The notes beneath the pieces were generated by a model. That model was not told the origin of the DNA, searched no databases, and saw only the letters and a program-made list of their open reading frames with translations. The position numbers and the translations under genes are program-made. This document shows positions 1 through 5,710 of a DNA stretch of 25,538 nt, piece by piece (position 1 is the stretch's first letter; each line of letters starts with the position of its first letter). Origin of the DNA: a virus (lineage: Duplodnaviria > Caudoviricetes); IMG/VR virus record IMGVR_UViG_3300027138_000030, positions 1 to 25,538 of that record. One strand, given 5' to 3'.

Positions 1-20
1 GATAGTGTGGATAACTTCTG

Positions 21-33
21 TAAGCTGTTGATT
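21..33 (-). promoter_or_regulatory. IHF-binding consensus site
   Basis: Minus strand reads AATCAACAGCTTA, an exact match to WATCAANNNNTTR, next to DnaA box 1. Confidence 0.55.
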
Positions 34-77
34 TTGCTAGTGTTTTTCTAGACGCTTACAAACGGCTGACAAAATCC

Positions 78-105
78 ATTTAATACAATGTCCATTATGT
101 TAACT
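78..105 (+). other. dif-like XerC/XerD recombination site
   Basis: ATTTAATACAA-TGTCCA-TTATGTTAACT has the 11-6-11 layout. The right arm matches the E. coli XerD arm TTATGTTAAAT at 10/11, and the arms are imperfect inverted repeats. Confidence 0.7.
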
Positions 106-284
106 CAAAATCATAGAAAGTATTACTGATTTGGGCATTCTGAGATGCAAACTGCAACCAGACTGTGCATATGTGGATAACTTGCCCTCCGATCTGTGGA
201 TAACCTGTGGATAACTTTTGGCTCGGCGGATTCTGGCTGGCGGAGGCGGAGAGGGAAAGAGGCGGATGGTGCATTATTGGGGGA

Positions 285-375: not shown

Positions 376-612
376 CTAATCCTCGTCAGAATCGCCTACA
401 ACAGGTTTATATGGCTCTCCCTTATCTACCCCTAAGAAATCATATAAATCGTTTCTAGGGCGGTATCCAAGTTCCCATAAGATGGCGTAGCAGTCCAAGG
501 CATTCTTAAAGCCATTGGTGATGTTCCCTTTGCCGGCACACAATAGGATTGTCCTTTGTTCCTCAGTCAGCTTCCGCCTGAACTGGACAGTGTTGATCTG
601 AGGACTCGCCAT
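376..612 (-). CDS. Small hypothetical protein, possibly ribbon-helix-helix-like DNA-binding
   Basis: 78 aa; TAATG coupling to the upstream ORF; strand-helix-G.GN-helix pattern (QFRRKLTEEQRTILLCAGKGNITNGFKNAL). Confidence 0.6.
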   Translation of the reverse strand: MASPQINTVQFRRKLTEEQRTILLCAGKGNITNGFKNALDCYAILWELGYRPRNDLYDFLGVDKGEPYKPVVGDSDED

Positions 613-1265
613 TACTTCCTCTTTGGCGGTAGGTTAAACATCTTCGGCGCATCACCACCGCCGTAAATAGGTTCAAGGTCATCGACCATATCGTCAAAGC
701 CTGAGCCTTTGCCAAAGTCATCACCAGCTTTGAACCTCTTGACCTGTGCGGTTGGGTCAAACGCTTTGGCCTTGATGATGAACTGGATTGCTGGCTCATT
801 GATGATGGCCTCAAACTCTTCCAGAGTCCAGATGGTTAGGTCTTTGCGTAGCTTTTGCAAATCAATGCAATCATTTATCGTTTCTGTAACTGCCATGATC
901 TGACCTGATTGAGTTTTCCATTCAACGAATCTGATGTTTGTGGGGCTTGGGTTGATCTCATTATCTTCACCCCATTTCTCTAGATGGTCATAACCTTTGA
1001 CCATCCCTGCAATTGCTTTACGCAGCCGTTCAATGTCTTTGTGATCGATGGCATCCCAAACCCTAGCCATCTGACCCCAAAACCTCTCCCTAAACTCACT
1101 GTCAACTAAAGTAATCAATCTCTCACAACCCCATTTCTGGTGATGTTCCTCTTTCCTTGACTCAAGTTCAACCAAAACCGCACTGGCTTGAATATCCCAA
1201 GTAGTTGGCTCATACCTTTTAATCTCAACTTTAGGAACATCTTTTCTTAACCGTGATTTAACCAT
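612..1265 (-). CDS. Hypothetical phage protein (217 aa), downstream of the primase-helicase
   Basis: Start re-called at MVKSRLRK with SD GAAAGGA; the longer track start runs through the repeat region. Confidence 0.75.
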   Translation of the reverse strand: MVKSRLRKDVPKVEIKRYEPTTWDIQASAVLVELESRKEEHHQKWGCERLITLVDSEFRERFWGQMARVWDAIDHKDIERLRKAIAGMVKGYDHLEKWGEDNEINPSPTNIRFVEWKTQSGQIMAVTETINDCIDLQKLRKDLTIWTLEEFEAIINEPAIQFIIKAKAFDPTAQVKRFKAGDDFGKGSGFDDMVDDLEPIYGGGDAPKMFNLPPKRK

Positions 1266-1286
1266 TTTCAATTTCCTTTCAAAAAC

Positions 1287-1400
1287 GACAAAGAGACAAA
1301 GGGACAGGAGACAAACCTCTTGTTTATAGACAAGAGGTGGTTTGTCCCCATCTCCTCGAAAAGACATTTGGGACATTTGTCCCTGTTTGTCTCGTTTGTC
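1287..1400. repeat. Iteron-like GACA(AA)/TTTGTC repeat array with central palindrome; putative replication origin
   Basis: GACA at 1287, 1295, 1303, 1310; 9-bp inverted repeat ACCTCTTGT/ACAAGAGGT (1315-1338); TTTGTC at 1341, 1376, 1386, 1395; GGGACA-TT-TGTCCC at 1370-1383; intergenic, just downstream of the primase-helicase. Confidence 0.65.
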
Positions 1401-1420: not shown

Positions 1421-3472
1421 CTAATTATCCAAACTGGATTTCAACCAAACCCAATTTGACCCAATGACAATCTTATTTACGCTAACAAGACGCTCCCTAG
1501 CACGAAGCCATGCTTTCTTAAAGGCCGTCTTATCATCCTCAGTACACCCTTTCATAGACCAGAATTCGGCTCTCCAATCGTCCAAACTGACTCCATACCT
1601 ACTAGTACCATCTACTTCACTGTATGTTCCTTTAGACTTAATCACTTTCATTAACGAATCCATCTCAATCCGCTGATTGTTGCCGCTACCTGAGTTGTTT
1701 TTAGACCCTTTAGGCTTGTCATTTGCGATGTCGGGGTTGTGCCTGATGGCTAATGAGGTGGTAATTTCAAACCCAAGGTCTGATGTTCCAATCTCCACCA
1801 GCACGATTTCAATGCCGATCTGGATGCTATCTGCACCGTCTTTTTGTTTGCTAACGGTCAAGATTGCGTTACCTATGACGCTTGAATCTGCTGAGTTGAT
1901 AACTGAATCCTGCCGCTGTATCTCAAGTTCAGTGTCTACAGCACCTAGCAAGGAGCTATGACCTCGCAAGCCCTTACTGATGTCCTTACCACTATGATGA
2001 ATTACCATCAAGGCACATTCGAAGAGTTCTTGGAGTTTTCCTGCTTGGGTGATGAATGCACCCATGTCTTCAGAACTGTTCTCGTTAAATCCACCGCCAG
2101 ACATACGCATCAGGGTATCAAGGATGATGATCTCTAAAGGTTCACCTATCTCAGCTATCAGGTCATTGATTGCGTTGAGTAGTTCTATGAAGTCTTCGGG
2201 ACTTGATCTCAGGTTGAGTTGCGCCCTGATGATGTACAGGTTTGCGCCATCTGGACTTTGATTCTGTATCTTGCAAGCCTTCACCCTTGCGCCCATACCG
2301 CCATGACCCTCACCACATATATATAAGACTGCGCCTTTCTTGGGTATCTTGTAACCCATCCAATCTCTGCCTGTTGCAATCGCCTCTGCCAAATCAAGGG
2401 AGATGAATGACTTGTATGAGGCAGGGGGTGCGTAGAGAGCTACAAATGCTTTCTTCGGGACAATTGACTGCACGAGCCACTCAACTGGCTCATCTTTAAT
2501 TGAGTCCCAAGACTCGACCAGTAATCTGGAGGGTTTTGCTTCTTTGACGGTAGCACTAGATTCTTTTGGTTGTGGCTCAGGCACATAATCATGCAGCCTT
2601 GATGGTTGCCATACATCTTCTACAGACTTGACGATAGGACAGGCTTTTGCCAGTTGTGCCAACAGCGACCTTGAACCGTCATACCTATTGACCCACTCAT
2701 AGGCATCTTCCTTGGGTTGAGTAAGGGGTAAATCCAAGACCCTGATGCTCTTTGTGCTACCTGATCCAAGTAAGGACTCAACAATCTTATGGGCGTAACC
2801 CCATCCAGCGGCATCATTGTCGGGAACTATCACGACATTTGCGCCAGCAAAGTACTGGTTCAAGTCCTGATTCCAACCACCAGCACCAGCGTGAGAGGTG
2901 GTCGCCACTACCCCAAGACTGCATAAGCTATCTGCCGCTTTCTCACCCTCAGTTATATATATGACTCTGCCATCGGCAATTGCTTGTCGCAGTTCGGGGA
3001 GTCGGTAGGGGATGATGCGGCAGTCACCTAACTTGCCTACTCGACTGCCATCGGGCATGACTCGTAAGGTCTTATATGTCTTTCCTTTGATGTCATTGGT
3101 CTTATATCTTTGCTTGAGAAAGAGGGAGATGCCGTCCTCATCAACGTAATGCCATTCATGCTCAAGTGTCATGACTGTCGGGGTTGTGGCCTGTGAACTG
3201 TTAGATATCGGCTTGATGCTGGACAGGTATTCAGGTCTATCTGGTAGCTGCGGGAGTATGCCCATGTCCTTGATGGTGCTGAACACTGTGTGCTGGTCGC
3301 AGCCACCGTGACATTTGAAGAGGTAATTCCCGTCAACTGATTCGGTGATGGATAGGGATGGATGCTTATCTCCCTTACCTTGACCGTGATCGGGTACGGG
3401 GCATGATGCTAGGTAACCATTGCCTACCTTTTTTGCATTGCCCAAGGTAGTGGCTATTTGTTGTGCTGACAT
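1421..3472 (-). CDS. Primase-helicase (N-terminal Zn finger, TOPRIM domain, RecA-like AAA_25/RepA-type helicase)
   Basis: CPVPDH...CHGGC zinc finger; TOPRIM motifs ITEGEKAAD and VPDND; variant Walker A APPASYKS, Walker B IIILDTL, HHSGKD and LRGHSSL. Confidence 0.92.
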   Translation of the reverse strand: MSAQQIATTLGNAKKVGNGYLASCPVPDHGQGKGDKHPSLSITESVDGNYLFKCHGGCDQHTVFSTIKDMGILPQLPDRPEYLSSIKPISNSSQATTPTVMTLEHEWHYVDEDGISLFLKQRYKTNDIKGKTYKTLRVMPDGSRVGKLGDCRIIPYRLPELRQAIADGRVIYITEGEKAADSLCSLGVVATTSHAGAGGWNQDLNQYFAGANVVIVPDNDAAGWGYAHKIVESLLGSGSTKSIRVLDLPLTQPKEDAYEWVNRYDGSRSLLAQLAKACPIVKSVEDVWQPSRLHDYVPEPQPKESSATVKEAKPSRLLVESWDSIKDEPVEWLVQSIVPKKAFVALYAPPASYKSFISLDLAEAIATGRDWMGYKIPKKGAVLYICGEGHGGMGARVKACKIQNQSPDGANLYIIRAQLNLRSSPEDFIELLNAINDLIAEIGEPLEIIILDTLMRMSGGGFNENSSEDMGAFITQAGKLQELFECALMVIHHSGKDISKGLRGHSSLLGAVDTELEIQRQDSVINSADSSVIGNAILTVSKQKDGADSIQIGIEIVLVEIGTSDLGFEITTSLAIRHNPDIANDKPKGSKNNSGSGNNQRIEMDSLMKVIKSKGTYSEVDGTSRYGVSLDDWRAEFWSMKGCTEDDKTAFKKAWLRARERLVSVNKIVIGSNWVWLKSSLDN

Positions 3473-4291
3473 TTAGTTATCTTTCTGTGAGTATTCGCCA
3501 TGCTGTTGCAGCACATAATGGGACTTGTCCATTTCCAATGGCTTTAAGTCTGTCCACCCTAGCGGCCACCCCATCAGCCACTCGACCCACATCGGGTTCA
3601 ATTTTCCACCAGCTTGAGCCGCAAGCGTAGGAGTATTTCTGTTCATTTCGCTCGGCGCATTCGTTTCTTTTGAATTGTGTGCTGTTGGGGTTGTAAACTT
3701 CTCCCTCAATGCCACAACTTCCTCTAAATTGCCCTTGTGACCCTTTTCTATGTCCAATCTGATTTTTACTGGCCGGGTCATTTGACATCTTGGGGTAGGC
3801 CATGTTTGTTCCGACAATCCAGATTCTGTCCCTCTGATGGTTTGCTCCAACGTTAGCTGCTCCCAACACTCCCCATTTCGCATCAAACCCCATTGAGGCC
3901 AAGTCTCCGAGAACTCGTCCAAGTCCCCTAGAAGTGAGCATTGGTGAGTTTTCCACGAACACGAATCTGGGTCGTACTTCACGAATGATGCGAGCCATTT
4001 CTGACCACATCCCTGATCGTTCTCCGTCAATTCCTGCGCCTTTTCCTGCGGCACTGATGTCCTGGCATGGAAACCCGCCAGATACGACATCAACAATTCC
4101 TCGCCAAGGTTTTCCGTCAAAGGTTTGTACGTCATCCCAAATCGGGAAAGGCGGGAGAAGACCATCATTTTGTCGGGCGCACAATACGCTTGCTGGATAG
4201 GCTTCCCACTCGACTGCACAGACTGTTCTCCATCCAAGCAACTTGCCGCCGAGTATTCCTCCACCAGCGCCTGCGAATAAAGCCAACTCAT
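3473..4291 (-). CDS. Alternative-frame beta polypeptide of the C5-MTase (motif IX and TRD-like segments)
   Basis: 272-aa open frame overlapping the MTase in the +1 frame. LNPMWVEWLMGWPLGWT resembles motif IX; its stop abuts the primase ATG. Same design as M.EcoHK31I alpha/beta. Confidence 0.75.
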   Translation of the reverse strand: MSWLYSQALVEEYSAASCLDGEQSVQSSGKPIQQAYCAPDKMMVFSRLSRFGMTYKPLTENLGEELLMSYLAGFHARTSVPQEKAQELTENDQGCGQKWLASFVKYDPDSCSWKTHQCSLLGDLDEFSETWPQWGLMRNGECWEQLTLEQTIRGTESGLSEQTWPTPRCQMTRPVKIRLDIEKGHKGNLEEVVALREKFTTPTAHNSKETNAPSEMNRNTPTLAAQAGGKLNPMWVEWLMGWPLGWTDLKPLEMDKSHYVLQQHGEYSQKDN

Positions 4292-4295
4292 TCAT
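3477..4295 (-). CDS. C5-cytosine DNA methyltransferase, catalytic (alpha) polypeptide lacking motif IX
   Basis: Motif I LFAGAGG, IV GGFPCQD, VI ENSP, VIII HQRDRIW, X RLKAIGNGQVP. Start re-called at MNELALF; 272 aa. Confidence 0.93.
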   Translation of the reverse strand: MNELALFAGAGGGILGGKLLGWRTVCAVEWEAYPASVLCARQNDGLLPPFPIWDDVQTFDGKPWRGIVDVVSGGFPCQDISAAGKGAGIDGERSGMWSEMARIIREVRPRFVFVENSPMLTSRGLGRVLGDLASMGFDAKWGVLGAANVGANHQRDRIWIVGTNMAYPKMSNDPASKNQIGHRKGSQGQFRGSCGIEGEVYNPNSTQFKRNECAERNEQKYSYACGSSWWKIEPDVGRVADGVAARVDRLKAIGNGQVPLCAATAWRILTER

Positions 4296-4319
4296 ACCAC
4301 CTACCAAAGTTAAAGAGAC

Positions 4320-4353
4320 AAAAAAACCAGAGTTCTCCCCCGAAAACTCTGGT
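4320..4353 (-). terminator. Rho-independent terminator after the SSB-like gene
   Basis: Minus strand ACCAGAGUUUUC-GGGG-GAGAACUCUGGU followed by a U tract. Confidence 0.85.
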
Positions 4354-4370
4354 GCTGGTTAGTTCAGTGT

Positions 4371-4970
4371 TTAACTAAACATCTCATCATCATCCATTGC
4401 TGGTGTAGTTACTGGCTTGGCCTTGATAGGGCTAGGTGCTGGTTTAGCGGGTACTGGTGCTGAGATTTCGGGATCAAAGCCGCCTGAGTTGTCATCTGAC
4501 AATGCCGCTGGTCTTGCTACCCAACCCGTTACGTTGAACTCAGGTACACGAGTGCTACCTTTACCAACCTTTTCGGGTCTACTACCCTTGTACTCCACCA
4601 CTGGCAACTTGCCAGCGTTAGCAGATGCCTGTGCTTGCACTTGTTTCCATAAAGCCTCTAAGCCCATGTTTGCACCCGCACCGTTGGCACTGTACTCAAC
4701 AACACCCATTGTCTTGTTGAAGAAAGTTGCTTTGAATCCACGCTTATGCTCGGCACTTGGCTGAGAACCTTTCTGACCAAGACTGCCATCAGGGAAGAAT
4801 TCAAAGATGCCAGTAGCAATCAGCAACCAACCTGTTTCAAGGTTCTCATGGTCAAAGACAAACTTCTCTAAGATGAACTCGCCATCTTGGTTTGACCATG
4901 CGTTTGCTTGTGGGCTGAATCTAATGTAGTTACCGTTACCACCGCCTGAGTTACTGAGGTTTAAATTCAC
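4371..4970 (-). CDS. Putative single-stranded DNA-binding protein (199 aa)
   Basis: GTG start at 4970 with SD AAAGGA; Pro-rich linker and acidic tail ending DDDEMFS; lies between nuclease and primase. Confidence 0.65.
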   Translation of the reverse strand: MNLNLSNSGGGNGNYIRFSPQANAWSNQDGEFILEKFVFDHENLETGWLLIATGIFEFFPDGSLGQKGSQPSAEHKRGFKATFFNKTMGVVEYSANGAGANMGLEALWKQVQAQASANAGKLPVVEYKGSRPEKVGKGSTRVPEFNVTGWVARPAALSDDNSGGFDPEISAPVPAKPAPSPIKAKPVTTPAMDDDEMFS

Positions 4971-5023
4971 AATGTTTCCTTTTAAAAGTTTTAAGAATGT
5001 GACAGATGTCACGGTTGGGGGAT

Positions 5024-5710
5024 TCATATTAAAGATGTTTGTTCTTGCTTGGGTCTTACATCCTCAAATAATCTTGGTTGCGCTACTGCTTGTTCTATGC
5101 GTTGGCAAGCAATGTCAAAGTATTTAGGTTCACGCTCAATGCCAATGAACTTGCGTCCCATCTGGATAGCGGCTACGCCTGTAGTGCCGCTTCCCATGAA
5201 GGGGTCGAGGATTGTTTCTGATTTTGGGCATAGGGTAATTACCCATTTCATAACCTCAAGCGGCTTTTGTGTTGGGTGATAGCGTTCTTCATTACCTTGA
5301 CGAATCATGCCATTCCATCGCCACTGAAGTCTACGAACAGCTTTATCCCAATTAGTCCATGCAAGTTCACAATCGGCAAAATCGTTGTCACCATTCAATT
5401 TGTCCCATACAAGCCAGCATGACGTAGGAGGTAATGTGAAATAGTTTCCACCAAAAAATGCTTGGTGTTGTCCTTTTGTGCGTATTAAATCAATCAGTTC
5501 ATTTGATGGCGGTGCTTTGTCCCAATCAAAATCACCATAGTCTTTTGGAGCCGCCAACTTTCCACGGCTTGCAACTTTTTTACTGTTTTCATTGATCCCA
5601 TAAGGTGGGTCAGTAATCACCGCATCAACCTTTGGCAAGGTTGGCAGAATGTCCATGCAATCCCCCAAGTACAGGGTTGCATCTCCGATTGTTTCGATTC
5701 TTGTATTCAT
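5024..5710 (-). CDS. Orphan N6-adenine/N4-cytosine DNA methyltransferase (beta class)
   Basis: DPPY precedes HPTQKP and DPFMGSGTTG; no adjacent restriction endonuclease recognised. Confidence 0.93.
   Translation of the reverse strand: MNTRIETIGDATLYLGDCMDILPTLPKVDAVITDPPYGINENSKKVASRGKLAAPKDYGDFDWDKAPPSNELIDLIRTKGQHQAFFGGNYFTLPPTSCWLVWDKLNGDNDFADCELAWTNWDKAVRRLQWRWNGMIRQGNEERYHPTQKPLEVMKWVITLCPKSETILDPFMGSGTTGVAAIQMGRKFIGIEREPKYFDIACQRIEQAVAQPRLFEDVRPKQEQTSLI

Follow-up and report, generated by a model that had tools for sequence, protein, structure and literature searches.

A gene-free stretch beside the DNA-packaging genes of a tailed phage carries a conserved array of putative sites for host proteins. 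The array is real and conserved and is probably functional; to judge from its sequence, it is probably a variant of a host-Xer site and not a copy of oriC or datA. The unit within the array is an Xer site together with a match to the IHF consensus, and perfect DnaA boxes lie around this unit. We consider it an evenly balanced proposition that the site works like psi or cer, that is, that host XerCD circularises or monomerises the phage DNA at a repeated genome end, with IHF as an accessory bender.

We analysed a DNA stretch of 25,538 nucleotides (hereafter, the window), a 25.5-kb fragment of a tailed phage in which Pfam and PHROG scans of the ORFs found primase-helicase, exonuclease, RuvC, endolysin, Rz and capsid genes. 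The sequencing runs that contain the window sequence are labelled riverine. The phage belongs to a freshwater family without a recombinase gene of its own, in which the array (hereafter, the module) adjoins the packaging genes.

Motifs in the module

The first-pass annotation of this DNA had reported four perfect DnaA boxes, an IHF consensus and an 11-6-11 site in a stretch with no credible gene, and every one of these motifs was found where it had been placed. The two overlapping ORFs scanned in this stretch (95-307 and 196-435) had no Pfam or PHROG match. The features of the module and of the adjoining genes are listed below, with offsets relative to the XerC arm; clades A and B, and the sets of sequences to which the counts refer, are described in the next sections.

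6..14, minus strand: perfect DnaA box, the variable one in the left cluster; past the contig end, L001 has two further perfect boxes in the opposite orientation
21..33, minus strand: match to the IHF consensus, lying 57 bp ahead of the XerC arm at a conserved offset
55..60, plus strand: first short direct repeat CTKRCA, 11-bp period; offset -23 in 52 of 54 segments
66..71, plus strand: second direct repeat CTKRCA; offset -12 in 50 of 54 segments
78..105, plus strand: Xer-type 11-6-11 site, with XerC-like arm (78-88), hexamer TGTCCA (89-94) and XerD-like arm (95-105)
172..180, minus strand: perfect DnaA box (+94), 9/9 columns invariant
195..203, minus strand: perfect DnaA box (+117), the sole position common to clades A and B, 9/9 columns invariant
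206..214, minus strand: perfect DnaA box (+128), 11 bp past the previous box, 8/9 columns invariant
376..612, minus strand: ORF of 78 aa at the end of the replication operon, with a weak ribbon-helix-helix lead; clade A only
612..1376, minus strand: conserved protein, about 217 aa long if translated from the probable start near 1265; adjoins the module in clades A and B
1421..3472, minus strand: phage primase-helicase (AAA_25), from Pfam/PHROG scans
3473-5710, minus strand: two DNA methyltransferase-like genes in the replication operon, from ORF scans

The four DnaA boxes are perfect copies of TTATCCACA on the minus strand, and there is none elsewhere in the window; 0.34 would be expected by chance, and none of 100 shuffled sequences reached four. 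By itself the IHF consensus is at chance level (two matches in the window versus 1.9 expected), and what supports the match is its conservation. The 28-bp site has the layout of an Xer site (two 11-bp arms, a 6-bp centre, a XerD arm near the consensus and a non-coding location), and it agrees with the Rhodoferax dif given in PMC2731167 at 18 of the 22 positions in the arms. The best score in the rest of the window was 15, and only one of 200 shuffled windows reached 18. The repeats at 55-71 are kept in both clades, and we take their spacing to be like that of OmpR/PhoB-family boxes.

Some other identities of the module were considered and dropped. Rfam gave no match at E up to 1, which argues against a small RNA, and a sigma-70 promoter pattern matched once versus 1.3 expected. 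The G-tract was not retained as KOPS because its orientation differs between clades. A search with parS and matS patterns gave nothing convincing. The module contains one GATC.

Genomic context

The contig of the window is truncated inside the module. A second sequence (L001/G001), 99.94% identical across the whole window, extends further and has, past the window end, two perfect DnaA boxes in the opposite orientation, a G/C tract, terS, terL and the portal gene; terS is probable, having been assigned by position and having no Pfam match. Thus, the DnaA array, which had been called co-oriented, is so for the four boxes in the window but not as a whole. The module is bordered by the end of the replication operon on one side and by the packaging genes on the other. 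Many contigs, including single contigs from run X6, which may be the source sample, and from run X13, span it in phage surroundings; it is therefore phage DNA, and a host oriC joined by misassembly or at a prophage boundary, of which the first-pass annotation had warned, was rejected. The location at the terminase genes and the likely genome end is the most informative context, and it could not be seen from the window. GC skew tracks gene direction only. The 41-kb contig G002 (L027, L032, L283 and L284) carries two divergent copies of the module 33.3 kb apart; it is probably a chimeric assembly of two strains, and the genome would therefore be about 33-34 kb.

The 217-aa protein always lies between the primase-helicase and the module. 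It is predicted to be a helical bundle with a small sheet (model pLDDT 77), and its matches are uncharacterised phage proteins, with one weak row named terminase small subunit. Since it has no PDB match and its relatives are uncharacterised, a role as an Xer activator or loader found no support. The 78-aa ORF was rejected as a binder of the direct repeats because clade B keeps the repeats without this ORF. A C5 methylase in clade B occupies a place similar to that of the methyltransferase-like genes of the window.

Conservation and geometry

Through the neighbouring protein (58-100% identity) we found 36 loci, of which 33 reach the site and three end too early; the 33 include several near duplicates, and two come from one contig. 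Each of the 33 has the 28-bp site together with the IHF match, and none has fewer than two perfect DnaA boxes, so that the motifs noted at first pass are indeed kept together in relatives. In 29 distinct relatives, 24 of the 28 columns of the Xer site are invariant, and the four N positions of the IHF site vary while its consensus positions hold. The three right DnaA boxes have 26 of 27 invariant columns in 29 distinct sequences, compared with 44 of 124 in the three main spacers. The box beside the IHF match, to which the first-pass annotation had drawn attention, is present in the window but is the least conserved of the boxes (3/9 columns invariant): among the 33 relatives it is in place in 18, shifted to -88 in seven and absent in eight.

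A pattern scan (119 loci) uncovered clade B, in which the neighbouring protein is about 40% identical, the 28-bp site is nearly the same and the DnaA boxes are rearranged. The clade B terL has no match to that of clade A, and the module lies at the 3' end of an Sf6-type terS, between this end and the unrelated terL. We then compared 54 segments of less than 90% identity, using a slightly loosened IHF pattern. All 54 have the IHF-like site on the XerC side and in the same orientation, at -57/-56 in 36 and at -47/-46 in 18, two positions one helical turn apart. A DnaA box at +116/+117 is kept in 50 of the 54. Together with the direct repeats, the core therefore has conserved DNA at fixed offsets on its XerC side, as psi/cer-type sites have.

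A wider scan returned about 880 stretches, of which 120 were read. In a third, GC-rich clade, IHF is at -33/-32, again on the XerC side; the site is flanked by DnaA arrays, and terL is found on the opposite side. In 64 segments of less than 75% identity, IHF lay on the XerC side in this orientation in 23, in the opposite orientation in two and on the XerD side in 10. These segment counts are not independent events because the clades are related. As IHF is tied to the XerC arm across clades between which terL changes side, it follows the Xer core and neither the terminase nor a DnaA box.

We also observed a phage family (L499, L503, L521 and 13 more loci) whose sites have the host-type centre TGTATA. 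On the XerC side these carry an IHF consensus at -43, they are accompanied by a G/C tract, and in some members a terL similar to that of clade B is nearby.

Resemblance to host dif

According to the accessible parts of PMC2731167 and PMC3025954, the dif sites of Rhodoferax, Acidovorax and Polaromonas have the inner XerC arm ACGA in common with the phage site, the XerD arm of Rhodoferax dif is exactly that of clade B, and Polynucleobacter dif differs from the phage site. These Comamonadaceae sites have the same 11-6-11 layout and similar arms, suggesting that the host is likely a member of the Comamonadaceae. The centre is different (TGTATA in the host sites versus TGTCCA), and KOPS-like octamers by the phage module point inconsistently. 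In the phage family the XerD-side end of the hexamer is always CCA or TCA, whereas the XerC-side triplet is mostly TGT but CAT or TCT in eight of 54 segments; a fixed XerD-side end with a varying XerC-side triplet fits self-recombination better than recombination with host dif. On viral contigs, a perfect DnaA box lay within about 150 bp of 36 of 72 NNYCCA sites versus none of 78 non-redundant host-type sites. Some NNYCCA sites carry the centre GATCCA, which we take to be that of psi.

No match to PF00589 was found in five relatives of 97-100% completeness. Likewise, the 49 ORFs of the window and seven of the missing part, the set in which serine recombinases were covered, contain no integrase, ParA/ParB partition or Rep family, in agreement with the earlier statement that the window lacks integrase and partition genes. 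An exact copy of the site is absent from 185,579 genomes; a protein scan of the same collection gave two related stretches, known as a count only. No hybrid of phage arm and host centre was found in metagenome contigs with an exact pattern for one of the two junctions. At 79 metagenome loci, 75 had a readable XerC-side flank, and all 75 were phage-type: 74 passed a rule requiring IHF plus the repeats, and the last has the same flank with a one-base variant of IHF.

Nearly symmetric XerD-XerD 11-6-11 sites were seen on other viral contigs (L044, L090, L098, L106, L114, L116, L120, L121, L141, L144 and L150), one of which is 358 kb long; except in L150, no DnaA box is nearby.

Cultured phages and genome ends

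In cultured phages, and in a provirus, Xer-like sites occur at genome ends and at terminase genes. Hena1 (site at 289, within an annotated 519-bp terminal repeat) and RpY2 (within a 236-bp end repeat) have them inside both terminal repeats, and SYP has one at two places. Such sites adjoin terL in ZF40, in Mulock and in a provirus that has an integrase of its own, although the ZF40 match failed the strict pattern; the provirus keeps its site intact. In the stretches examined, none of the cultured phages with an Xer-like site has a perfect DnaA box. DnaA and Xer signals are thus separable, and both gather near ends and terminases. In the E. coli phage WildeMaa (L489:2000-2043), a divergent gap contains an Xer-like site whose XerD side is directly adjoined by an exact IHF consensus; Seurat-type phages of K-12 also carry such a site.

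The terL belonging to the window has no close cultured relative, the best match being 45% over half the length, and a blastn search of cultured phages with the window's own 36-bp site gave chance matches only. In the case of clade B, the nearest named cultured terL is that of phiM5 (55%), whose 357-bp direct terminal repeat ends shortly after a C-tract in front of terL, at the place of the module; this repeat has no Xer, IHF or DnaA consensus. The analogy with phiM5, as far as it may be drawn, applies to clade B and not to the terL of the window. Pooled ends of assembled contigs scatter around the module with no sharp peak, and we therefore dropped genome ends suggested by three clade-B contig ends (+292, +292 and +302). 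What the module has in common with a terminal repeat or pac region is its adjacency to terS/terL.

DnaA boxes: comparison with origins and a wider survey

As in E. coli oriC, datA and DARS2, the module has perfect, helically phased DnaA boxes and an IHF consensus. It differs from these in lacking DnaA-trios and a separate unwinding element, and in that the position of IHF follows the Xer core rather than a box. None of 226 boxes was followed by a trio-like run, and the AT-rich part of the module is the Xer core itself. datA needs DnaA boxes flanking an IHF site at a fixed distance. In the module the box adjacent to IHF is variable, as described above, and on the other side 139 bp, including the Xer site, separate IHF from the next perfect box. 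As the motifs are co-conserved in contiguous phage DNA, the proposal of the first-pass annotation that the phage uses host DnaA, IHF and XerCD is a fair inference; its oriC/datA part is weak, given the spacing of IHF and the missing trios.

Tandem perfect DnaA boxes occurred in about 11,000 viral stretches versus about 1,600 for one permuted control. Their spacings (n=174) were 11-13 bp in 86, 20-25 bp in 53 and 14-16 bp in none, whereas 114 of 133 spacings in the permuted control were multiples of three. When 218 ORFs (up to four per locus) were scanned at 80 tandem-box loci, 19 loci had a terminase match, and 15 lay within 1.5 kb upstream of the terminase ORF, a count without a matched control. 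A dif-like site was near tandem boxes in six of 120 cases versus three of 252 distant windows. DnaA boxes are thus a common, separable add-on near phage ends. Tandem boxes also recur by GP88 (L159, L180, L192 and L199), DUF932 (L198 and L233) and Phage_gp49 (L172, L184, L189 and L228), where they possibly mark early or end regions. Microbacterium phage Squash has a pair of perfect boxes 12 bp apart near its left genome end (L156:346-366), with no Xer site in the first 3 kb, and 17 Microbacterium phage records contain a similar stretch. For phage G and PseuGes_254, the accessible parts of PMC12484599 and PMC11512268 give Ori-Finder calls that include DnaA boxes.

Discussion

On the psi/cer-like reading, the gene-free region by the terminase genes is likely the repeated genome end. 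We infer that the site lies inside the terminal redundancy and that XerCD and IHF act on it: the 28-bp site would likely bind host XerC and XerD, and IHF would bend the DNA beside it. Recombination between the two end copies would close the injected DNA into a circle; alternatively, it could resolve replication multimers into single genomes. Host DnaA is likely to bind the DnaA boxes. Our leading guess is that bound DnaA may help to hold or prime the end region, either by bridging the two ends or by loading early replication, and that any titration would be a side effect.

In psi and cer, the accessory DNA lies on the XerC side. Accessible portions of published work describe, for psi of pSC101 and cer of ColE1, a dif-like core with a non-host centre and one-sided conserved accessory DNA, used by host XerCD only, and report that this accessory DNA beside the core is required (10.64898/2026.02.23.706985; PMC5357621). 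The phage site is similar in these respects, but the conserved motifs of its accessory DNA are an IHF consensus, an 11-bp-period repeat and DnaA boxes, whereas psi and cer use PepA with ArgR or ArcA, and it is a putative site, known from sequence alone, at the packaging region of a tailed phage. The psi/cer-like reading, which accounts for more of the observations than any other, explains the non-host centre, the one-sided phased IHF and the link to the terminase, as well as why no recombinase gene is present and no integrated copies were found. Several points are against it. The contig ends show no sharp peak at the module, and the repeat of phiM5 lacks these motifs. The selectivity of psi and cer needs supercoiled DNA, according to the accessible part of 10.64898/2026.02.23.706985, and freshly injected linear DNA would lack supercoils. 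The cultured phages with a site in their repeats have no perfect DnaA box in the stretches examined, which leaves the fixed phase of the DnaA boxes unexplained. In most family members the XerC-side triplet is TGT, as would be expected of an integrating element of the VGJ type.

Phage P1 offers a precedent. Its tyrosine-recombinase site loxP, used by Cre, lies near pac, and the terminal redundancy holds two copies for circularisation. P1 encodes Cre, whereas in the phages studied here host XerCD would act. Circularisation of P1 through terminal redundancy is described in the accessible part of 10.1101/2021.07.08.451572.

The main idea of the first-pass annotation, a DnaA-licensed origin of a plasmid-like or carrier state whose dimers are resolved at the Xer site, seems to us unlikely, though it heads the alternatives. 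It gains from the phased perfect boxes that flank an AT-rich 50-bp window (rank 18 of 3436 in the genome), from an HTH regulator beside a divergent gap, from the missing integrase, from psi and cer being plasmid sites in the literature accessible to us, and from the SSU5-type phages, which we take to have a plasmid lifestyle, being among the nearest cultured matches to terL. On the other hand, the trios are missing and there is a single GATC, the AT-rich segment coincides with the Xer core, a primase-helicase is encoded by the phage itself, the ORFs scanned include no ParA/ParB or Rep family and the site did not occur in the genome collection; the plasmid-prophage thus has no direct support. 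A sink for DnaA like datA, which would titrate or inactivate host DnaA and so halt replication of the host, the Xer site being a neighbour with no connection to it, is the least probable of the readings. Each genome has two to six perfect boxes, all inside the module, and the excess and helical phasing of tandem boxes in viruses would suit such a sink, but the box next to IHF is often missing or moved, the fixed distance is that between IHF and the Xer site, and a sink need not sit at the terminase.

Two further readings fall between these. The one that we rank higher, itself quite improbable, is that IHF, DnaA and XerD bind and shape the end region for packaging or ejection without strand exchange, either in terminase assembly or in anchoring during DNA entry, as proposed for T5. 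IHF acts in lambda cos and P1 pac, which counts for this reading, as do the constant terS/terL link across unrelated terminases and the tandem boxes upstream of terminase ORFs. In T5, as described in the accessible part of 10.1101/866236, the non-coding injection-stop region in the left terminal repeat has phased DnaA boxes apart from the origins; their function is unproven there as well, and T5 differs in its two-step injection, its far larger genome and the lack of an Xer site in that description. However, the orientation of the IHF-Xer unit with respect to terL differs between clades, which would not be expected of a site oriented by the terminase, and the two arms, like the 6-bp spacer between them, show the conservation expected of a catalytic site. 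Ranked lower, and doubtful, is integration at host dif through XerCD, with the site as attP. The IMEX phages (VGJ, TLC, CTX and gokushoviruses) are, in the available text of the sources, likewise integrase-less with one dif-like site, and VGJ integrates with homology on the XerC side only (PMC5357621). The arms of the phage site match Comamonadaceae dif, most members have the TGT of the host on that side and the near-complete genomes have no integrase. The IMEX phages, however, are small or filamentous and are found integrated, whereas here exact-pattern searches found no integrated or hybrid copy and all readable flanks were phage-type. In addition, the XerC-side triplet departs from the host's in some segments, integration would split terS from terL in clade B, and the provirus that has its own integrase keeps such a site intact.

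In the literature that we covered, which was incomplete and lacked most subscription papers and the bioRxiv supplements, neither a DnaA/IHF/Xer module nor host-Xer sites at the ends of tailed phages were reported; the DnaA boxes of T5 were the only related case found. In the accessible parts of PMC9703825 and 10.1101/633727, respectively, Tyroviruses encode their own recombinases and the dif-integrating phage is an inovirus.

DnaA arrays near phage ends are common and are known from T5, so the DnaA half of the module is less surprising. What this locus contributes is IHF phased to the XerC arm across clades, together with the non-host centre. The XerC arm gives a hint of the host, the Comamonadaceae, for uncultured phages. 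In small phages without recombinase genes, how the DNA is circularised or monomerised has mostly been assumed and not demonstrated. It is conceivable, although we think it rather unlikely, that in many tailed phages host XerCD joins the end copies, with IHF and DnaA oligomers replacing the PepA/ArgR/ArcA scaffold, so that the state of host DnaA, and with it the host cell cycle, would gate circularisation.
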